Positions 1-17,055 of a DNA stretch of 32,000 nt are shown in pieces; position 1 is the first letter of the stretch, and each line of letters opens with the position of its first letter. This stretch comes from Aliivibrio fischeri ES114 (GTDB lineage Bacteria; Pseudomonadota; Gammaproteobacteria; Enterobacterales; Vibrionaceae): NCBI RefSeq assembly GCF_000011805.1, contig NC_006841.2. The stretch is one strand, 5' to 3'. The notes under the pieces were generated by a model. It was given only the letters and a program-made list of their open reading frames with translations, ran no database searches and was not told where the DNA came from. The position numbers and the translations under genes are program-made.

Positions 1-196
1 ACTATGAAAACAATTGTACAGCATAAAAGCAATAATTCAACAAATAGCTGAACATGAATTTAATTATGTGATATTCATTAAAAAAGAAATTTTAAATATC
101 AAAGCTGGCATTTACAGATAAAAAACACTAAAAATAATCAAGATAATTACGAGGAAAGTAACTTAAATTTAAAGTGTTACAGCGTCACTAAAGTTG

Positions 197-211
197 ATTT
201 ACAGTGTAAAT
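197..211. other. parS2-type centromere site ATTTACAGTGTAAAT
   Basis: Exact match to the Vibrio chromosome-2 ParB2 site consensus NTTTACANTGTAAAN as I recall it. It is a perfect 6+1+6 palindrome and lies in the control region upstream of rctB. Confidence 0.8.
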
Positions 212-216
212 TTTTA

Positions 217-257
217 CGGAAGCGTGAAAAATATTGGCTAAATTACGGTAAGTGTAT
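217..257 (+). repeat. 41-nt GATC-free origin-control repeat, copy 1 (candidate 39-mer-class RctB site)
   Basis: cggaagcgtgaaaaatattggctaaattacggtaagtgtat aligns without gaps to 448-488, with 27/41 identical by hand count. The conserved blocks are CGGAAGC.TG, CTAAATTAC.G and TGTAT. Confidence 0.6.
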
Positions 258-350
258 TTTCAATTAATTTTATGAAAAAAAATTCTTAAAAATTTCGATG
301 TAATATAAGAGATATACTTGGGTCTATTTCCATCTTATCTGAGTAAAATA

Positions 351-434
351 GAAGCATGATCAAGGGGTATATTCCACAAATAAACAGGTGTAAATTGATA
401 AAATGTAAGTTCTCAGCTAAGAAGCATGATCAAG
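351..434 (-). repeat. two identical 14-nt iterons GAAGCATGATCAAG (351-364 and 421-434)
   Basis: Exact 14-nt direct repeat 70 bp apart with a central GATC. It is the reverse orientation of the phased array at 746-851. Confidence 0.8.
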
Positions 435-447
435 CAATAAATAGCTT

Positions 448-488
448 CGGAAGCATGTATCTTTCTTTCTAAATTACAGAGGATGTAT
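448..488 (+). repeat. 41-nt GATC-free origin-control repeat, copy 2
   Basis: cggaagcatgtatctttctttctaaattacagaggatgtat. See copy 1. Its left arm GGAAGCATG equals the iteron half-site but has GTATC in place of GATC. Confidence 0.6.
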
Positions 489-550
489 ATCTGATAAGGC
501 TTCAGAGAAGATCAACGAAAAAATCAAATAATTCACTCAGGTTGATCTAA

Positions 551-575
551 GAAGAATGGTACTTGATCATTCTTC
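551..575 (+). repeat. iteron CTTGATCATTCTTC (562-575) inside an 8-bp inverted repeat GAAGAATG/CATTCTTC
   Basis: Read directly from the sequence: gaagaatggtacttgatcattcttc. Confidence 0.7.
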
Positions 576-723
576 TGAAATACGATTAAAACGCATTAGA
601 CTTAAGATCATCTTAATTTTATAGCTATTAATGAATTAAAAACGTATTTTCGGACTAATCTTTGGTCTTAAATGTCATCCATCAATAAAAGACACCTCTC
701 AAAAAGGGATAAAATAGAAATTC

Positions 724-732
724 TGTGGATAA
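724..732 (-). promoter_or_regulatory. DnaA box (TGTGGATAA, complement of TTATCCACA)
   Basis: Perfect 9-mer consensus. It sits one repeat period upstream of the first phased iteron, as expected for an oriCII minimal origin. Confidence 0.8.
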
Positions 733-745
733 CTTGTGTTTAGAC

Positions 746-851
746 CATGATCATTCTTCAATAAAACTCATGATCATCGATTCAAATGGACGATGATCAT
801 GCTTTTGAGATTTAATGATCATTGATCCAGAGTCATAATGATCATGCTTTC
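746..851 (+). repeat. array of five phased RctB-type iterons (12-mer class, GATC core)
   Basis: The sites are CATGATCATTCTTC 746, CATGATCATCGATT 769, GATGATCATGCTTT 792, AATGATCATTGATC 814 and AATGATCATGCTTTC 837. Core-to-core spacing is 23, 23, 22 and 23 bp. Confidence 0.85.
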
Positions 852-854
852 ATG

Positions 855-1000
855 CGTTTATTTTTTTAATTCTTTATTTTCAGTTACTTAAAAGCAAAAA
901 ACCAACCAGATCATAGATCAATATAATCATATAGATCAGAATTAATCATAAAGATCAGTTTAAAAGAATAATAATTTTTTTCTTTCTTTAAAGATCCATT
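855..1000. other. AT-rich GATC-dense putative unwinding element of oriCII
   Basis: Very AT-rich stretch between the iteron array and rctB. It holds five GATC sites and a 16-nt tandem repeat TAATCATA[T/A]AGATCAG at 924-939 and 943-958. Confidence 0.6.
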
Positions 1001-1046
1001 TCCATTAACCTATACGAAAGAATGATTAAAATACAATTAATGTCAG

Positions 1047-3038
1047 TTGAAAATGAATCATATAAAACCTACAGATAAAGAAAAGATCTACATTCCTCTT
1101 CCAAGAGATCACAAAGGTGGACACTTATTTGAAATCCCAACAAACTTAGTTGATTGGATTTCACAGTACCAACACTTTAAAGGTGTCACCAAAAGCATTT
1201 TGGAATTAATGAATCTTATTTCTTTAAAAGGATTTTCATCTCCAGATGGTTTAGTTTCTACAACTGAAATAATTGAAACAACTGATGGTCATTTGACTCG
1301 TGCAGCAATACAGCAACGTCTACGAACGGCTGTAAACATAGGATTATTTGAACAATTTCCAGTTCGTTTTGAACATGGCCTAGCTGGAAAAACCATGCTT
1401 CATAAATTTATTAATCCTTCTCAACTAATTTCTGCACTTGGGATAACCAGTCTTAAATCAGAACAAAGCCACGAACAAGAAAAACAAAAGCGTTCAAAAG
1501 CACTAGCTCAAACACAAGTAAACCGACAATTCCTAACAGAACACGGTTTAAGTGTACCTCCTAGTATGCGTGATGAAGCTGATCAATTTGTAGTATCTCC
1601 AACTAACTGGGCTGGGATCATAGATCAAGCTTTAGCTCCACCACGAACAAGAAAAAATTATCAGAAAGCCATGGTTGCTATTTCAGGAACAAAAGCAATT
1701 ATTGAAACAAGATCTTCTAAAAACATCATGACAGTTGATGATCTTATGACGCTTTTTGCTTTATTTACTTTAACTGTTCAATATCATGATCATCATCAAG
1801 ACGATTATCATATTCAAACAAAAACAATGGGAAATAAAACACCCATTTACATTACTGATATTCTTACACTTCGTGGTAAAAAAGATTCAGGACCTGCACG
1901 GGATTCTATCCGAGAAAGTATTGATCGTATTGAATTTACAGACTTTCAATTACATGAATTAACAGGCCGTTGGTTAAGTGAAAATATGCCAAAAGGCTTT
2001 AAAAGTGATCGTTTCCGTTTCTTAGCTAGAACGATCACGGCATCTGATGAAGCACCGAAAGAAGGCAAAGATGGTGAGATCAAGATCAAACCAAATTTGT
2101 ATATTTTAGTTTGGGAGCCATCGTTTTATGATGAATTATTAACCAAAGATTACTTCTTTTTGTTTCCACCTGAAATTTTAAAGCAACATACACTAGTATT
2201 TCAGCTCTATAGCTTCTTCAGAAGCCGTTTAGCACGTCGAATGACTGATAACCTACTCCTGAGTGAAATTAATCAAAAACTCGCTCGTAACGTTGATTGG
2301 AGACGTTTTTCATTAGATCTTATTCGAGAACTAAAGAAATTAGCGAAGGATAAAGTTACTGAAGAGCTGTTTATTGTTAATTTATGGGGTTATCACTTAA
2401 CGATTTCGATGCTGGATAGTTCAGAAAAGTTGCCTGATTATCAAATTGATATTCGTTGTGATCCTGAAGAGGTAATTCGATACTCTCGTGCAAGAACAAC
2501 GAATGCTGGAAAGCGTAATATGGCACCAACAATGCCAAACCCTTTACGTAACGAGATCATGCCAAAGCAAGACCTTGATCAGCTTTCCACGATCATTGAT
2601 GGTGAATTTGAGCCTATTAAACGCAATGATCCAAGTAAGAGTGGCCGTTTAGGCCGTAGGGTTAAGCTACGTAAACATTCAGCTGAAATTAATGCTGATG
2701 AATTAACTATCACATTAACCAAATACACGTCAGAGCAAGCGTTAGAGCGCAGTATTACGGCTTTATCTGCTATGACAGGACATAGTTCATCCTCTATTTC
2801 TGATGAGTGCAAAGAACTATTAGATAAACTAGATTATTTAAAAGTTGCTGGTGAGATCTTACCTTACGAAACATTAAGTAAGACGATTGAATTTTATAAT
2901 AGTCAAGATCATGGCAAGCATTTATCCATTGAAAACTTGATCTCTGGATTAGCTGTACGCAGAAAGATCTGTAAGTTGGTTTATGCACAGAACTATGATC
3001 AAGATGTACTGCATGCATTAGATGAAATGGCAGGGTAG
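1047..3038 (+). CDS. rctB: chromosome-II replication initiator RctB
   Basis: The 663-aa ORF has an N-terminal region (LPR.HK.GHLFE...QYQHFKGVTKSI.EL.NLISL.G...DGLVSTTE...TDG.LTRAAIQQRLR) that matches V. cholerae RctB from memory. It lies directly after the iteron/DnaA-box origin. The start is TTG at 1047 or ATG at 1053. Confidence 0.93.
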   Translation: MKMNHIKPTDKEKIYIPLPRDHKGGHLFEIPTNLVDWISQYQHFKGVTKSILELMNLISLKGFSSPDGLVSTTEIIETTDGHLTRAAIQQRLRTAVNIGLFEQFPVRFEHGLAGKTMLHKFINPSQLISALGITSLKSEQSHEQEKQKRSKALAQTQVNRQFLTEHGLSVPPSMRDEADQFVVSPTNWAGIIDQALAPPRTRKNYQKAMVAISGTKAIIETRSSKNIMTVDDLMTLFALFTLTVQYHDHHQDDYHIQTKTMGNKTPIYITDILTLRGKKDSGPARDSIRESIDRIEFTDFQLHELTGRWLSENMPKGFKSDRFRFLARTITASDEAPKEGKDGEIKIKPNLYILVWEPSFYDELLTKDYFFLFPPEILKQHTLVFQLYSFFRSRLARRMTDNLLLSEINQKLARNVDWRRFSLDLIRELKKLAKDKVTEELFIVNLWGYHLTISMLDSSEKLPDYQIDIRCDPEEVIRYSRARTTNAGKRNMAPTMPNPLRNEIMPKQDLDQLSTIIDGEFEPIKRNDPSKSGRLGRRVKLRKHSAEINADELTITLTKYTSEQALERSITALSAMTGHSSSSISDECKELLDKLDYLKVAGEILPYETLSKTIEFYNSQDHGKHLSIENLISGLAVRRKICKLVYAQNYDQDVLHALDEMAG

Positions 3039-3202
3039 TCAATATATTGACATGCTTATGGCTGTTTATTGACAATATGATGACATAAAGAAAAGGGGAG
3101 AGGCTATTATTACTAACGAATAGACAACCTTTGTCCTTTACCAATCGAAAGATTGGCTCATATTGTTACACATCTTACTTTTATTGTTTAAATAATTGTA
3201 TT

Positions 3203-3230
3203 GGCGAGCCTCAGAGCTCGCCGTTTTTTT
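3203..3230 (+). terminator. rho-independent terminator after rctB
   Basis: GGCGAGC-ctcaga-GCTCGCC followed by G and T7. Confidence 0.8.
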
Positions 3231-3273
3231 ATCTGCAATAAATCATTTTTACATTCTCCGTATCCTATGACTC

Positions 3274-3287
3274 CATGATCATTCTTC
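3274..3287 (+). repeat. iteron-like site CATGATCATTCTTC downstream of rctB
   Basis: 14/14 identical to the origin iteron at 746-759. It is intergenic. Confidence 0.7.
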
Positions 3288-3387
3288 CATTGAAAAATAA
3301 GGTGTTAGAGCGTTCGATACTCGTAATTATGAACAATTTTTATTACTCTATACGCCTATTTATTTTCTATTATTGAGATGACTTCCT

Positions 3388-3735
3388 ATGATTGAGCGCC
3401 AAGAAACAAAACAACGCATGAGCCGCATTGTAAAACACAATGGAACGATTTATTTGTGTGGTCAAGTATGTGCTGATGCAACAAAAGACATCACTGAACA
3501 GACACAAACTATGCTAGATAAGGTGGATCTTCTGTTAGAGCAAGCTGGAAGTTCTCGTGAGCATATGCTGTCAGCTACGATCTACATTAAAGATATGAAA
3601 GATTTTGCTGAAATGAATGCGGTATGGGATGCATGGGTTCCTGAAGGCCATGCACCAGCACGTGCATGTGTTGAAGCAAGTATGGCTCGTGAGGCTTTAT
3701 TGGTTGAGATCTCAGTTATCGCGGCTGAAAAGTAA
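3388..3735 (+). CDS. RidA/YjgF/L-PSP family protein
   Basis: 115 aa. Size and motifs ([10 protein letters not shown]..., ...PARACVEA...LVEI) are typical of the Rid family. Confidence 0.8.
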
Positions 3736-3744
3736 TATAAATTA

Positions 3745-3782
3745 AGTGATTACCAATTTATATTGGTGATCACTGCTTTTTT
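3745..3782 (+). terminator. rho-independent terminator after the ridA-family gene
   Basis: AGTGATTACCAAT / ATTGGTGATCACT stem with one G-U pair, followed by GC and T6. Confidence 0.75.
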
Positions 3783-3793
3783 AATCAAACATA

Positions 3794-3906
3794 CTTGATC
3801 ATCTTTCCGTAATTCTTCTGTTTTATTTGATCTCTGTCTTCTTACACCTTGATCATGTTTCTGTGAACAGTATAAGATCTATATTGTTTTGTCATGATCA
3901 TGCTTC
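3794..3906 (+). repeat. three iteron-like sites (3794-3807, 3848-3861, 3893-3906)
   Basis: CTTGATCATCTTTC, CTTGATCATGTTTC and CATGATCATGCTTC. They have 2, 1 and 1 mismatches to the reverse complement of the 351/421 iteron. All share the orientation of the phased array and all are intergenic. Confidence 0.65.
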
Positions 3907-4044
3907 TGTTCTTATTCACTATCTTGTTATTTTTTATCACTATCTATTTCATATATAAGAAATTTAATGCCTCTGACATTTCTCTAACATAACGCCTTAT
4001 TTATTCCGTACACTGCCCGCTTCTTAAGTTAGTTTGGTTTTTTC

Positions 4045-5586
4045 ATGTCTGTTTTCAAATATTCACCGCTCTTTTTCTCTTTATTTTTAACTGCTTGTGG
4101 CTCTGATTCTGAAGATTCATCAGATACTTCAAGTTATTGTGATACGAGTATGGGGAGTAGGGTGAGTGAAAATGGAAGCATGAAAACAACATTTCCTAAA
4201 ATCAGCTGCCAAGTTTTAGTGAATCCGGATATGGGTTTTACTGATTTTCATTCTATTTCAATTAAAGATAACGAATGGAAGCCAGTTCCTTCATACCCTG
4301 AAACCAGTACAGTTTATTATCGCTGGGATTGGTCGGTTTTGCAGCCTACGGATGCTGATTCATTCGATTTCTCTGAAATAGAAGAAGTGGTAACTAAGGC
4401 GAAAAGTGCCAATAAAAAATTAGCTCTACGCATTGTAGCAATGGAAAATACGGGCTACGGAGCAGCAGAAAGCAAATTACCAACATGGTTAATGAACGCT
4501 ATTTCAGGAACAGATGCTCCTAATGGTGTGTTTATTCCTGATTATACGAGCTCTGAGTTTTTAACTGCGGCCAATAAGCTGATAGCTAAATTAGGAGAGG
4601 TATTTGATGATCCTGATTTAATTACAAGCATAGATATCGGTATGGTTGGTTCTTGGGGTGAGTGGAATTTAGAAGACGCTTATCCTGGTGACGGCACGTT
4701 AGGGTTATACGCTAATGGTGAGAAAGGACTATTTTCTAATTTTTCTCGTTTTTCTGAATACGCTGATATGTTCGAATTGGCGTTTACTCAAGTACCTAGA
4801 GTAATGTTAATTGGTTCAGCTAATGAAAATGAAACCTTTTTAGCTCAAGCAACAAGTAGTACAAAACCAGCAGGGTGGCGAGCCGATTGTTTAGGTGATA
4901 AGTACGGTTATTTTTCTAATAGCTGGAGCCATATGGATGAAGGCTACCCTGAGGCATTAGCAAATGCTGAACAAAATGGTTCGTCGGATATTAAAAGCAT
5001 CTGGAAACAAGCTCCAGTTCAGTTTGAAACTTGCGATGATATGACGGTATGGAAAACACATCATTCATACACAATTAACGATGTCACTGAAGTGTTTAAC
5101 TATGCGCTTGATCATCACGCATCATTGATTAACGCAAAATCAAAACCAATTCCTGATGAATTTCAACCTGCGGTTCAAGAGGTGCTTAAAAAACTCGGTT
5201 ATCGTTTTGAATTAATTTCTCTAACGCACTCTAAAGAGGTTTTAGCATCAAGTTCGATGTCTATTACTTCTGAATGGAAAAACAGTGGTGTAGCCCCTTC
5301 TTACTACCCATATCGACTTGCTTATCGTTTTGTTGATGCTTCAGGAAATGTTGAGCCAAAACAAGAGACCTCAAGAAATGTTCTTGACTGGTTGCCTGCA
5401 GAAACAAGAACGGGCACGGCTCCTGTGATTAATATTCAAGATAATATTAAGGCTCCTGCGTCAACAGGCATGTATGATTTACAAGTCGCTTTAGTAAATG
5501 ATCTTGGGGATGCACACATTAAGCTTGCGATAGACATGCCCCAAGAAAATAACTGGTACACGATTTCTAAGGTTACGATTAATTAA
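4045..5586 (+). CDS. lipoprotein, putative glycoside-hydrolase-like TIM-barrel protein (DUF4874/DUF4832-like)
   Basis: Lipobox signal peptide (LFLTAC). NPDMGF and MVGSWGEWN motifs recall that family. The family assignment is from memory only. Confidence 0.6.
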   Translation: MSVFKYSPLFFSLFLTACGSDSEDSSDTSSYCDTSMGSRVSENGSMKTTFPKISCQVLVNPDMGFTDFHSISIKDNEWKPVPSYPETSTVYYRWDWSVLQPTDADSFDFSEIEEVVTKAKSANKKLALRIVAMENTGYGAAESKLPTWLMNAISGTDAPNGVFIPDYTSSEFLTAANKLIAKLGEVFDDPDLITSIDIGMVGSWGEWNLEDAYPGDGTLGLYANGEKGLFSNFSRFSEYADMFELAFTQVPRVMLIGSANENETFLAQATSSTKPAGWRADCLGDKYGYFSNSWSHMDEGYPEALANAEQNGSSDIKSIWKQAPVQFETCDDMTVWKTHHSYTINDVTEVFNYALDHHASLINAKSKPIPDEFQPAVQEVLKKLGYRFELISLTHSKEVLASSSMSITSEWKNSGVAPSYYPYRLAYRFVDASGNVEPKQETSRNVLDWLPAETRTGTAPVINIQDNIKAPASTGMYDLQVALVNDLGDAHIKLAIDMPQENNWYTISKVTIN

Positions 5587-5595
5587 TGTCTTTGT

Positions 5596-5766
5596 TTAAG
5601 GCAGTCTAAGCAATAAGAAATCGTAAAGATGTATGGTCTCTGAGCGAGTTGGAGCCTGCTCATTGATTTGGTTTAATTGATGTTTAATCGTATAGATCCG
5701 AAAACCGACAATAGAGATAAGAATAAATGCAATGACGTAGATAATTGTATGATTTGATATGTTCAT
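5596..5766 (-). CDS. small membrane protein (56 aa), hypothetical
   Basis: An internal ATG at 5766 is preceded by a strong SD (TAAGGTGGGGCAGC-ATG). One TM helix (IIYVIAFILISIVGF). The longer track ORF would read through the terminator at 5885-5920. Confidence 0.4.
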   Translation of the reverse strand: MNISNHTIIYVIAFILISIVGFRIYTIKHQLNQINEQAPTRSETIHLYDFLLLRLP

Positions 5767-5884
5767 GCTGCCCCACCTTATTGAAAAATCAATGATAACG
5801 ACTGCTTGAATTAACCATATCTTAATTGTGGTTTTAATTCTGATAACTGGATTAAAAAAACAGCATAAAGTTGAACTTTTATCC

Positions 5885-5920
5885 AAAAAAACAGCCACTA
5901 TCATCGAGTGGCTGTTTTAT
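5885..5920 (-). terminator. terminator of the M20 peptidase gene, possibly bidirectional
   Basis: ACAGCCACT-atcatcg-AGTGGCTGT, flanked by A6 on one side and TTTTATT on the other. Confidence 0.75.
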
Positions 5921-5943
5921 TATATTTATGATAAACGTTAAGA

Positions 5944-7050
5944 TTAACGAGTTAGATACGCTGCAACGAAACGAGTAATATCAACCATATCTGATACTTT
6001 AATGAATTCTTCTGTTGTATGTACTTTTGACATACCAGTAGAAAGGTTAACCGTTGTTAAGCCTTTTTCATTAAATACGTTTGCATCTGAGCCACCACCA
6101 GTTGGTTTAGTAAACGGATCGATGTTAATGCTTTCAAACGCTTCTTTAATACTTACAACATGTGGGTTTTCATCTGCAATTTTATAAGCGTTGTATGCGC
6201 GAGTAGAGATGATTTCAATTTCAGCACCGTGTTTATCAGCTGCTGCTTTAAATGTTGATTCCATATGCTCAACTTGCTTCGCTAATTTTTCATCATCTAG
6301 AGAACGAGCTTCACCTTCAATGTACAGTTCTGGCATTACAATGTTCGTTGCTTGACCACCACGTACGACACCGATGTTAGCCGTTGTTTCTTCATCAATG
6401 CGTGATAATGTCATATTAGTAATCGCATCAGCAGCAACCGTTAGGGCATTGATGCCTTCTTCTGGAGCTAAACCTGCGTGGGCTGGACGACCTGTAATAG
6501 TTACTTTAAGGTTTTGCTGGCCAGGCGCAGATGTAATGATAGTACCAATAGGGCCACCTGAATCTAGCACGATTGCGTGGTTAGATTGAATGTAGCTCAT
6601 ATCGAAATTTTTAGAACCGTGTAAACCGCCTTCTTCATAAACGGTAAAAGCTAGCTCTAGTGTTTTGTGTTCTTGGTTGTTTTCTTTAATAACTCGAACC
6701 GCTTCCATTACCGCAGCGATACCTGATTTGTCATCGCCACCAAGAATAGTGTTACCTTTAGAGCGGATAACCCCATCTTCAATAATTGGTTCAATGCCGT
6801 TACCTGGCGTTACTGTATCCATGTGAGAGCTAAATATAATGCTTCCCTCTAATGAGCCATCCAATCGAGCATAGATGTTGAAACCATTTGATACATGCTC
6901 TGGTACTGGTAATTTTGATACGGTAAAGCCAAGCTCGCCTAATTGCTCTGCTAACGCTTCTGCAATGGCTTTTTCATTTTTTGATTCACTATCAATCTGG
7001 ATAATATCTAGAAAGTGATTTACTAAACGTTCTTGATTCACTTGAGTCAT
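5944..7050 (-). CDS. M20-family metallopeptidase (PepT-like tripeptidase)
   Basis: 368 aa with SSHMDTV, GGDDKSG and EEGG motifs characteristic of M20 peptidases. Confidence 0.8.
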   Translation of the reverse strand: MTQVNQERLVNHFLDIIQIDSESKNEKAIAEALAEQLGELGFTVSKLPVPEHVSNGFNIYARLDGSLEGSIIFSSHMDTVTPGNGIEPIIEDGVIRSKGNTILGGDDKSGIAAVMEAVRVIKENNQEHKTLELAFTVYEEGGLHGSKNFDMSYIQSNHAIVLDSGGPIGTIITSAPGQQNLKVTITGRPAHAGLAPEEGINALTVAADAITNMTLSRIDEETTANIGVVRGGQATNIVMPELYIEGEARSLDDEKLAKQVEHMESTFKAAADKHGAEIEIISTRAYNAYKIADENPHVVSIKEAFESINIDPFTKPTGGGSDANVFNEKGLTTVNLSTGMSKVHTTEEFIKVSDMVDITRFVAAYLTR

Positions 7051-7275: not shown

Positions 7276-8412
7276 ATGAAATCACGATTAAAAATCACAA
7301 CAGTTGCTCTACTGTTTGCTTCATTTTTTGCTGTTATAACAAGTTTCTTTTCTACCGCTGAAGACATGACTCAGCCAATGAAAGGGGACAATGAGGTTGC
7401 CACTCTTGCAGGGGGATGCTTTTGGTGCACTGAATCTGATTTAGAAAAGTTAGATGGGGTGGTGGATGTGGTTTCTGGTTATTCTGGGGGAACCCTTGAA
7501 AATCCAACCTATAAGCAAGTGTCATCAGGAAAATCGGGTCACATAGAAGTGATTCAAGTGACGTTTGATCCGAAGGTGGTTTCTTATGAACAGATCCTTG
7601 ATCATCTTTTCAGGCATATCGACCCAACAGATAATAAAGGATCGTTTGTTGATCGCGGACCTCAATATCGCCCTGCTATTTTTTATCACAATGAAGATCA
7701 GAAATTGATCGCTCAGAATTTTATGAAAGATATTGATGCAGCAGGGATTTTTCCAAAACCGTTAGCTACTGAGTTAATTGAGTATAAGACATTTTGGCCA
7801 GCAGAAGCGTATCATCAAGATTATTACAAGCGTAATCCTATTCGTTATAAGTATTATCGTCATGGTTCTGGTCGTGATAAGTATTTAGATTCTGTATTTG
7901 GTGAAGATAGAGAGGAAAATCCGAAAACATTACGTCAGTACATTACTGAATATGAAATGGCAGTTAATGTGAAGCCTTACAGTAAGCCTTCTGAAAGTCA
8001 GATCAAGAAGTCTCTGACAGAACTGCAATATTATGTAACGCAAGAAGAGGGAACAGAACGTCCATTTGATAATGCTTATTGGGATAATAAAGCGGAAGGT
8101 ATTTATGTTGATATCGTAAGTGGTGAGCCTTTATTTTCATCAACTGATAAGTATAAATCCGGGACTGGTTGGCCAAGTTTTACGAAACCAATTAATAAAG
8201 CGTACATTGTCGAAGAGGACGATTTCCAGTTATTCACTAAACGTACTGAGATTCGAAGCAAGTTTGCTGATTCACATTTAGGGCATGTTTTTAATGATGG
8301 CCCTAAGCCTACAGGTTTACGTTATTGTATGAATTCTGCTGCGATGCGTTTTGTTGCAAAAGCAGATTTAGAAAAAGAAGGTTACGGTGAATATTTGTAT
8401 TTGTTTAATTAA
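7276..8412 (+). CDS. msrAB: bifunctional methionine sulfoxide reductase MsrA/MsrB with N-terminal signal or anchor sequence
   Basis: GCFWC MsrA motif and [11 protein letters not shown] MsrB motif in one 378-aa ORF. The N-terminus is hydrophobic ([22 protein letters not shown]). Confidence 0.9.
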
Positions 8413-15444: not shown

Positions 15445-17055
15445 TTGATACAATCAAACAATATCACTATGCAGTTTGGCGCAGAGCCTTTATTCGAAAA
15501 CATTTCAGCAAAATTTGGCAACGGTAACCGTTATGGTTTGATCGGGGCGAATGGTTGCGGAAAATCAACCTTCATGAAGATTCTAAGTGGCGCATTAACT
15601 CCTAGCTCTGGCAATGTATCAATGACACCGGGACAAAAGTTAGGTGTGCTAAGTCAAGATCAATTTGCGTTTGAGCAATTTAACGTAATCGATGTTGTGA
15701 TCATGGGGGACAAAAAATTATGGGAAATCAAACAAGAGCGTGACCGTATCTATTCATTACCTGAAATGAGTGAAGAAGACGGTATGAAAGTGGCAGAGCT
15801 TGAAAGTGAATTTGCTGAAATGGACGGTTACAGCGCTGAAAGTCGTGCTGGTGATATCTTGATCCAAGCGGGTATTGATGAATCACTTCATTTTGGTTTA
15901 ATGCAGCAAGTGGCACCTGGTTGGAAATTGCGTGTGTTATTGGCACAAGCTCTGTTTGCAAACCCTGATATTTTGTTACTTGATGAACCAACCAACAACT
16001 TGGATATTCATACGATCAACTGGTTAGCTGAAGAGCTGAATCAACGTAAATGTACCATGATCATCATTTCGCATGACAGACACTTCTTGAACTCTGTATG
16101 TACGCATATGGCGGACATTGATTATGGCGAATTACGCATTTATCCAGGCAATTATGAGTATTTCTTAGAAGCATCTAGCTTGATCCGTGAGCAATTACTA
16201 GCAGGAAATGCGAAAAAAGAAGCTGAGATTAATGAGCTACAAGATTTCGTAAACCGTTTTGGTGCTAATGCATCGAAAGCGAAACAAGCAAGTTCTCGTG
16301 CCAAGAAAATGGAAAAGATCACTCTGGATGAAGTGAAGTCATCTAGTCGTATGAGCCCATCAATTAATTTTGGTGAAGGTAAAAAATTACACCGCCAAGC
16401 ATTAGAGCTTGAAAACCTAGGTCATGGTTTTGATGGTGACGTTCTATTTAAAGGCGGAGACTTACTGCTTGAAGCGGGTACACGTTTAGCGGTAATTGGT
16501 GAAAATGGTGTAGGTAAAACAACCTTCTTACGTTGTTTAGTTCAAGACTTAAAACAAAACGAAGGTATTGTTAAATGGTCTGAAAACGCTTCTGTGGGTT
16601 ATTGTCCTCAAGATAGCACTGCTGATTTTGATAATGATTTAAGTATTTTCGATTGGATTTCTCAATGGCGTACCGCTAAGCACGATGATCTTATGGTTCG
16701 TGGTATTTTAGGTCGTTTGTTATTTACTGCTGATGATGCAAATAAGAAAGCGCGTAACTGTTCAGGTGGTGAGAAGAACCGTTTATTATTTGGCAAGTTA
16801 ATGATGCAAGATATCAATGTACTTGTTATGGATGAACCAACAAACCACATGGATATGGAAGCGATTGAAGCTCTGAATAATGCGTTAAAAGTGTACCCAG
16901 GTACGCTAATCTTTGTAAGTCATGACCGTGAGTTTGTATCGTCTCTTGCAACGCATATCATTGATATTAAAGATAAGAAGATCATTAACTTCCAAGGCAC
17001 TTATGATGAATATTTAGATCATCAAGTTAAAATGCTTCAGGTTAAAATTGCCTAA
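15445..17055 (+). CDS. ybiT: ABC-F family ATPase, YbiT orthologue
   Basis: Collinear with E. coli YbiT from memory, with two ABC cassettes. A TTG at 15445 (AGGA located 9 nt upstream) gives [12 protein letters not shown], which aligns with E. coli MLVSSNVTMQFG. The track start at 15418 is also TTG. Confidence 0.9.

Follow-up and report, generated by a model that had tools for sequence, protein, structure and literature searches.

Putative RctB sites immediately downstream of rctB: a candidate auxiliary control locus for the chromosome 2 origin of Aliivibrio fischeri

The DNA analyzed here is a 32,000-nucleotide stretch of contig NC_006841.2 of Aliivibrio fischeri ES114 (assembly GCF_000011805.1), referred to below as the window, which carries rctB, the initiator gene for replication of chromosome 2, and, upstream of it, the chromosome 2 origin, ori2. 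A first-pass annotation, made from the sequence without database searches, had pointed out four iteron-like sites on the far side of rctB, and had suggested that they might act by titration, by handcuffing across rctB, or through regulation of the neighboring genes. We favor the first two of these suggestions, which make up the best supported of the readings considered: the four are probably genuine RctB sites that together constitute an auxiliary control locus past rctB, restraining re-initiation at ori2 by titration and/or by handcuffing or looping. That RctB binds them in A. fischeri, that the effect is negative, and how it is divided between titration and looping are what we infer from the comparisons below.

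Four iteron-like sites match tested RctB sites of Vibrio cholerae

An exact sequence check confirmed the four sites on the plus strand. Site 1, CATGATCATTCTTC (3274-3287), is identical to the origin iteron at 746; site 2, CTTGATCATCTTTC (3794-3807), is a 12-mer-like iteron with two mismatches to TTGATCATGCTT; site 3, CTTGATCATGTTTC (3848-3861), has one mismatch to the same sequence; and site 4, CATGATCATGCTTC (3893-3906), contains ATGATCATGCTT, which is both the V. cholerae reference iteron and the site known there as chrII-1. All four lie, as had been noted, in the two intergenic regions (3039-3387 and 3736-4044) that flank an open reading frame (ORF) of the RidA family. The V. cholerae RctB iteron consensus, (A/T)TGATCATGCTT (Table S1 of PMC3937223), served as an independent reference. 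Against the V. cholerae reference iteron, site 4 is a perfect match, sites 1 and 3 each have one deviating position, and site 2 has two. Each site contains WTGATCA, i.e., an A or T before the TGATCA hexamer that includes the Dam target GATC. In V. cholerae this hexamer is the sole fully conserved part of the iterons, and a tested non-binder, CTGATCAAAAC, has a C in front of it rather than an A or T.

The 3′ flanks of the sites fit either the 12-mer type of iteron (TGCTT) or, on the minus strand at sites 2 and 3, the 11-mer type (AGGT/AGTG). Read on its opposite strand, site 2 is ATGATCAAGTA, an 11-mer type of V. cholerae RctB site, and site 3 is ATGATCAAGGT, also of the 11-mer type and identical to V. 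cholerae chrII-5, an active RctB-binding site (PMC3937223). ATGATCATGCTT, the sequence within site 4, binds RctB in V. cholerae and in trans lowers the copy number of a chromosome II mini-replicon (mini-chrII) to <0.1 (PMC3937223). Sites 2-4 are classed as predicted Dam-methylatable iterons, of either the 12-mer or the 11-mer type. The four sites had been described as sharing the orientation of the phased origin array; this is ambiguous for sites 2 and 3, as TGATCA is a palindrome and their 11-mers lie on the other strand.

Sites 2-4 were also considered as possible 39-mers, the second class of RctB site. TTACGG on the minus strand (3807-3812) abuts site 2, which also starts like a 39-mer (CGGAAAGATGATCAAG), but there is no second arm at the right spacing, and sites 3 and 4 have no 39-mer features. 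All three were therefore taken as plain iterons.

The sites lie 0.2-0.9 kb past the rctB stop codon and 2.4-3.1 kb from the origin iteron array. They are spaced 520, 54 and 45 bp apart, out of keeping with the head-to-tail phasing of that array at 22-23 bp. Because the regulatory iterons of the incII region and the extra-origin sites of V. cholerae are also unphased, the missing phasing excludes origin function but not iteron identity. A pseudo-origin can be rejected on other grounds as well: no DnaA box (≤1 mismatch) was found in 3039-4044, and an AT-rich stretch there contains one ATCA, compared with six in the real unwinding element.

The sites cluster well beyond chance

The 14-nt pattern used in the first-pass annotation, CWTGATCATNYTTC, has eight exact matches in the 32 kb, against an expectation of 0.01 from dinucleotide shuffles. 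Four are in the origin (351 and 421 on the minus strand, 562 and 746 on the plus strand) and the other four are sites 1-4. This pattern was built from the sites themselves, and patterns derived from the V. cholerae literature were therefore also run. The pattern TGATCATNNTT gave 13 matches in the window against 0.93 expected, and 10 of the 13 fall in the origin or in the downstream cluster. The strict 12-mer WTGATCATNNTT occurs four times in the 658 bp of the two intergenic regions, where 0.027 are expected (Poisson P ~2e-8); the local expectation comes from an analytic first-order Markov model whose training sequence included the sites, and is hence conservative. The earlier judgment that the clustering was unlikely to be chance was thus borne out.

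Three comparable matches had been listed in coding sequence, at 1785, 7597 and 16056. Those at 7597-7610 (CTTGATCATCTTTT) and 16056-16069 (CATGATCATCATTT), both on the plus strand, hold as looser near-iterons, the former being one position off the strict pattern and resembling site 2; that at 1785, TGATCATCATC, is weaker, and a further match was found at 2991 on the minus strand. Set against the 0.93 expected for the whole window, the three matches outside the clusters (7597, 16056 and 2991) are not clearly above chance.

Site 1 is a putative composite of an iteron and a 39-mer-like element

Site 1, originally described as a plain iteron, is better described as a putative composite RctB site in which an iteron is nested within a 39-mer-like frame. 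The composite spans 3252-3289 on the minus strand and reads TGGAAGAATGATCATGGAGTCATAGGATACGGAGAATG; it includes 3274-3287, and the iteron within it, on the plus strand, is ATGATCATTCTT. The frame consists of yGGAA, 21 nt, and wTACGG, and so has ends of the kind found in the RctB 39-mer (CGGAA, N21, TTACGG) at exactly the same 21-nt spacing. A relaxed 39-mer pattern, run on the window and 13 loci, matched only origin 39-mers and the composite site, the latter in the window and in A. sifiae. A weight matrix was then built from 92 distinct origin 39-mers and used to scan 1.15 million non-origin positions in the 69 loci; scores above 8 bits outside the origins were obtained only for the composite site, in nine Aliivibrio loci.

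Conservation follows the composite rather than the iteron alone. Across ten Aliivibrio species, 30 of the 38 columns of the composite are invariant, compared with 9/20 and 45/102 (~45%) in the flanks, and the conserved block reaches past the iteron to an invariant CCGTATC..TATG. The closest known counterpart is V. cholerae chrII-10, with which the composite is identical in register at 26 of 38 positions. In its nested iteron the composite holds a GATC, unlike the 39-mers, which are GATC-free; the arrangement in chrII-10 is the same. chrII-10 is the one known natural iteron-in-39-mer composite; its 39-mer part binds unmethylated DNA, and it inhibits mini-chrII strongly, an effect not relieved by extra RctB (PMC3937223).

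Iterons in the first kilobase after rctB are conserved across most Vibrionaceae

The comparison set comprised 69 rctB loci, one per species, from Aliivibrio, Vibrio, Photobacterium and Enterovibrio. Over these loci the strict 12-mer WTGATCATNNTT occurs at 8.2/kb in the origin, 0.118/kb in the rctB coding sequence, 1.78/kb in the first kilobase after rctB, 0.113/kb from 1 to 4 kb downstream, and 0.006/kb far upstream; the first kilobase is thus enriched ~15-fold over adjacent DNA. At least one strict iteron is present in that kilobase in 59 of the 69 species, so the conservation check proposed with the first-pass annotation came out strongly in favor of the sites. The downstream sites share an extended consensus of 16 nt, (C)GGAA(G/C)(C/G)ATGATCAAG.

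The first-pass annotation had placed the 12-mers and 39-mers of V. cholerae all upstream of rctB. This premise is out of date, more sites having been described (PMC11711613; Niault et al. 2025), and V. cholerae has its own conserved iteron-like site, TGGAACGATGATCAAGG, 256 bp past the rctB stop codon, at an estimated 5.7 kb of CP028828.1. Number, position and orientation of the downstream sites differ between clades: there is one at about +250 in the V. cholerae group, two at +9 and +470 in the V. halioticoli group, two on the minus strand at +45 and +81 in the V. litoralis group, and three in the V. splendidus group, whereas V. bivalvicida and others have inverted pairs. These differences point to turnover of the sites under selection. 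In V. viridaestus no iteron was found within 1 kb past rctB.

Site 1 is universal in Aliivibrio. Site 4 has orthologues in other species of the genus, lying upstream of the same lipoprotein gene and forming an invariant block in an alignment of just 65% identity. Among Aliivibrio, sites 2 and 3 occur only in A. fischeri and, with site 1, are kept in all eight A. fischeri sequences compared; the site 2 variant CGGAAAGATGATCAAG is also found 3′ of rctB in V. fortis, V. sp. D404a and V. sp. Of7-15. Other Aliivibrio have instead an inverted iteron pair in another spacer, past two extra genes. In eight loci (L002-L004, L006, L007, L009, L010 and L062) this is a near-perfect pair of consensus iterons, GAAGCATGATCAAG, 12 nt, CTTGATCATGCTTC, with starts 26-27 bp apart, located about +2095 to +2150 past the rctB stop codon and between genes of 435 and 270 amino acids, both of which A. 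fischeri lacks at that position.

The sites persist across differing gene contexts. ridA occupies the position after rctB in Aliivibrio, and a convergent VCA0003-like gene does so in most Vibrio; Vibrio species, and one Aliivibrio metagenome-assembled genome, have no ridA there but all retain downstream iterons. Lying between site 1 and sites 2-4, the RidA-family gene is a passenger.

An iteron embedded in a coding sequence is constrained as DNA

The VCA0003-like ORF, the convergent next gene after rctB in most Vibrio, has no Pfam match, and in 31 Vibrio loci (e.g., L016, L052, L065, and L037, where the ORF is at 6396-6938 on the minus strand) a downstream iteron lies within its coding sequence. 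There the peptide R-K-H-D-Q-V is always encoded as CGR AAG CAT GAT CAA GTR. The codon counts are 31/0 for AAG, 30/1 for CAT, 31/0 for GAT and 31/0 for CAA, whereas elsewhere in the same genes these K, H, D and Q codons are used in ~40-65% of cases. The VCA0003-like proteins otherwise fall to as little as 30% identity, and in the clades without this embedded iteron (the V. cholerae and V. litoralis groups) the RKHDQV peptide shows no conservation at all. Frozen synonymous positions, together with a peptide that is unconserved where the iteron is missing, imply constraint on a binding site and not on the protein; a site frozen inside a coding sequence also argues against regulation of any particular neighboring gene.

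Proposed function and alternatives

Two activities, both of which would restrain re-initiation at ori2, are proposed for the cluster. When fully methylated, the plain iterons (sites 2-4) would soak up RctB, i.e., titrate it. The composite site 1 would pair, via RctB, with the 29-mer, the 39-mers or the iterons of the origin, handcuffing or looping the DNA and possibly looping out the 2.2-kb rctB gene. The precedents are all from V. cholerae. A single iteron supplied in trans titrates RctB and reduces mini-chrII copy number (PMC3937223), and RctB binding to iterons requires full Dam methylation; the 39-mers, by comparison, are bound independently of methylation, are the dominant inhibitory sites, and are bridged into loops by RctB oligomers. 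The tight linkage to rctB, evident from comparing the first kilobase with the next three, exceeds what pure titration would need, and speaks for a cis-acting role or for co-inheritance within a single replicon module.

Several observations count against this interpretation. The composite departs from the 39-mer at both ends, where it has TGGAA (position 1 being T, not C) and ATACGG (for TTACGG); its weight-matrix scores of 9-13 bits are far below the 23-37 bits of true 39-mers. In Enterovibrio and Photobacterium no iteron was found within 1 kb past rctB, from which it follows that the locus is not essential to RctB replicons, and site 4 is missing from one A. fischeri strain (L077, GCA_001640545.1), in which the DNA is different from ~3862 on. 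In contrast to the tight incA array of plasmid P1, the sites are dispersed, with a gene in their midst, and two RctB-like megaplasmids carry iterons only upstream of their rep gene. The peak list from chromatin immunoprecipitation sequencing (ChIP-seq) of V. cholerae RctB has no separate peak just past rctB, although that species has only a single, non-consensus site there, ~2.3 kb from the 58× origin peak; iteron occupancy in V. cholerae is described as transient and weak, and other iteron peaks reach only 2-3×. Finally, V. cholerae incII iterons can act positively by countering 39-mers, which leaves the sign of the effect uncertain.

Two side observations belong here. In strain L077, ~650 bp of highly AT-rich DNA, together with an AraC-type (HTH_18) gene, takes the place of site 4 and the lipoprotein gene (locus ~1675-2350); the divergence starts a few bases past site 3, where the conserved ori2 module seems to end in this strain. 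The idea that the layout is ancestral to the RctB-family plasmids found no support in the two replicons examined, A. wodanis pAWOD_2 and V. rotiferianus pAM7, the iterons of which lie upstream of rep only. pAM7 (L072, 1300-2700) has CCGTAAGATC iterons at 22-bp spacing in which the reverse complement of TTACGG is joined to GATC, and 44-nt repeats ending TTACGGAA..ACAGGCATG that are reminiscent of 39-mers; pAWOD_2 (L071, 1470-2000) has thirteen tandem repeats of 34 bp, and its rep faces a convergent Tus-like gene.

A more far-reaching reading, which we offer as tentative and rather unlikely, would make the rctB-distal sites a third arm of ori2 control that is conserved between Aliivibrio and V. 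cholerae but absent from current ori2 models. RctB oligomers would then tie these sites into the 29-mer/39-mer "inhibition complex" and loop out rctB together with the adjacent small-RNA gene described below, physically coupling expression of the initiator to origin licensing.

The sign question gives rise to the first alternative, that the sites bind RctB but act positively, engaging the 29-mer and 39-mers and thereby freeing the origin iterons to promote timely initiation. The V. cholerae papers describe regulatory iterons that antagonize 39-mer inhibition and that promote or inhibit depending on whether a 39-mer is present, and the sequence and conservation evidence would fit such a role equally well. 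We nevertheless regard it as unlikely: every isolated extra-origin iteron tested in V. cholerae reduced copy number in trans, and site 1 includes a 39-mer-like element, a purely inhibitory class.

A second alternative is that the sites matter mainly as GATC sequences, extending Dam/SeqA sequestration over ori2 and rctB, with RctB binding being secondary. The window does have a GATC-rich domain (9-17/kb) from the origin through rctB, with averages of 16/kb in the origin and 12/kb in rctB; the density rises to 41/kb at 3790-3910 and, the domain stopping right after site 4, is 1-7/kb beyond 4 kb. The same trend is seen in the 69 loci, where the mean GATC density is 15/kb in the origin, 9.4 in rctB, 8.7 in the first kilobase downstream, 4.8 further downstream and 3.1 far upstream. 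This pattern suggests that a Dam/SeqA domain may cover the whole initiator gene, and its end after site 4 is consistent with a functional origin domain that reaches that far. As an explanation for the sites themselves, sequestration is improbable because conservation covers the 12-16 nt of the iteron consensus, well past GATC; the frozen codons span the whole iteron; and other GATCs of the region are not likewise conserved.

RctB might also act at these sites as a transcription factor for ridA, for the DUF4832 lipoprotein gene or for the small RNA, in line with the earlier suggestion of regulation of neighboring genes. All four sites are intergenic, 115-250 bp before the ridA and lipoprotein start codons; the position of site 4 upstream of the lipoprotein gene is kept across Aliivibrio; and RctB is known to repress its own promoter. 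However, the sites persist while the flanking genes change between clades, and in many Vibrio they fall within a convergent gene or at its 3′ end. None of the sites is overlapped by a promoter-like match. RctB sites in other V. cholerae promoters had little effect or none, leading the authors to conclude that RctB regulates only its own gene. We consider this role highly improbable.

Chance matches, or now functionless relics of an old origin duplication, would account for the strain without site 4, for the genera without downstream sites and for the missing V. cholerae ChIP-seq peak, but are strongly disfavored by the expectation of 0.01-0.03 matches, the enrichment next to rctB, the invariant blocks in otherwise diverged intergenic alignments, the frozen synonymous positions of the embedded site, and the lack of a DnaA box or ATCA-repeat element beside the cluster.

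The upstream origin and genes neighboring the sites

rctB (1047-3038, plus strand) encodes a 663-amino acid protein with Pfam domains PF11826 and PF18622, and the RctB of the window is 100% identical to that of A. fischeri emors.2.1. The region upstream of the gene is annotated as a typical chromosome 2 origin. Its minimal portion (ori2-min) has an array of five strict iterons (746-851, plus strand) with starts at 747, 770, 793, 815 and 838, i.e., 22-23 bp apart, next to a DnaA box (724-732, minus strand) and an AT-rich unwinding element with six ATCA repeats at ~900-960. An incII-like region (217-575, no strand assigned) contains a 39-mer (217-254), a 39-mer-like element (448-485) in which TTACAG replaces TTACGG, and regulatory iterons at 351-364 (minus), 421-434 (minus) and 562-575 (plus). 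3′ of rctB the order is a non-coding block with a terminator, site 1, the RidA-family gene with its terminator, sites 2-4, and the lipoprotein gene. The RidA/L-PSP family gene (3388-3735, plus strand; 115 amino acids; PF01042, E = 9e-28) has its own terminator at 3745-3782, and the DUF4832 lipoprotein gene, the next past sites 2-4, starts at 4045.

The non-coding block between rctB and site 1 contains a conserved small-RNA gene (3105-3232, plus strand), with a core at 3115-3180 and an intrinsic terminator at 3202-3232. By position and sequence it is the homologue of V. alginolyticus srvg23535 (PMC6186989), which was reported to be absent from V. cholerae and from outside Vibrio (PMC6186989). 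The core, CGAATAGACAACCTTTGTCC...AGATTGGCTCATATTGTTACA, was found by blastn in 46 of the 69 loci, including V. cholerae, V. mimicus and ten Aliivibrio, and in loci L001-L066 the gene lies about +65 to +275 past the rctB stop codon. An Rfam search of window positions 1-6000 found no known RNA in the conserved block after rctB. By a rough estimate from the sequences, the first downstream iteron is ~20-55 bp past the small-RNA terminator in most species that have the gene. Note that three TGACA motifs just past the rctB stop codon (TTGACA at 3047, TTGACA at 3069 and TGACA at 3081) are invariant in ten Aliivibrio; the motifs at 3047-3085 are probably the small-RNA promoter and possibly a regulator site.

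Comparison with known systems and significance

Origin-type iterons 3′ of the initiator gene are familiar from plasmids, where P1 incA and F incC control copy number by titration and handcuffing. The order oriR/incC, repA, incA in P1 (AF234172) places such iterons directly 3′ of the initiator gene, just as here. P1 incA, however, is a tight array of nine 19-bp iterons ~31 bp apart that abuts repA, whereas A. fischeri has four sites in 630 bp, with a small-RNA gene before them, ridA between them, and a 39-mer-like composite as one of them. RctB replicons already have a separate upstream inc region. That region, incII, shows the same mix of iterons and 39-mer-type elements, for which methylation-dependent and methylation-independent binding, respectively, would be expected; it lies on the parAB2 side of ori2-min and forms part of every ori2 model, whereas the cluster described here is found beyond rctB.

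The V. cholerae extra-origin sites chrII-1, -5, -6, -9, -10 and -11, described as "datA-like" (PMC3937223; Baek & Chattoraj 2014), share the initiator family and the motifs, and like the A. fischeri sites are outside ori2 yet near enough to it for early replication. They differ in being spread over 74 kb, ~40 kb from ori2 and on the other side of the origin, and in having proven RctB binding; the A. fischeri sites, known here from sequence, are 0.2-0.9 kb past rctB, a position kept across most of the family. E. coli datA is conceptually alike, its origin-proximal initiator sites lowering initiation potential after they are duplicated, but the initiator there is DnaA and the mechanism is IHF-dependent hydrolysis of DnaA-ATP, so the likeness is functional only. 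No mention of iterons downstream of rctB, or of VCA0003 in connection with rctB, was found in the open-access papers searched, subscription-only papers such as Egan & Waldor 2003 being outside the scope of the search. The suggestion of an undescribed layer of control thus stands in part: the location immediately 3′ of rctB and its conservation, V. cholerae included, are apparently unreported, but the kind of control is already known, from the P1 arrangement of oriR/incC, repA and incA and from the extra-origin sites of V. cholerae.

The ori2 of Vibrionaceae serves as the model of how a replicon of plasmid type turned into a chromosome under cell-cycle control, and the map of its control elements (incII, ori2-min, the 29-mer, crtS and the distant titration sites) is considered fairly complete. 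Should the downstream sites have only a small titration effect, the result would be incremental. Many of the mini-chromosome constructs in which rctB is supplied from another plasmid or promoter may be without these sites. If the proposal is correct, conserved RctB sites right at the 3′ side of rctB would add a component to the map of ori2 control.

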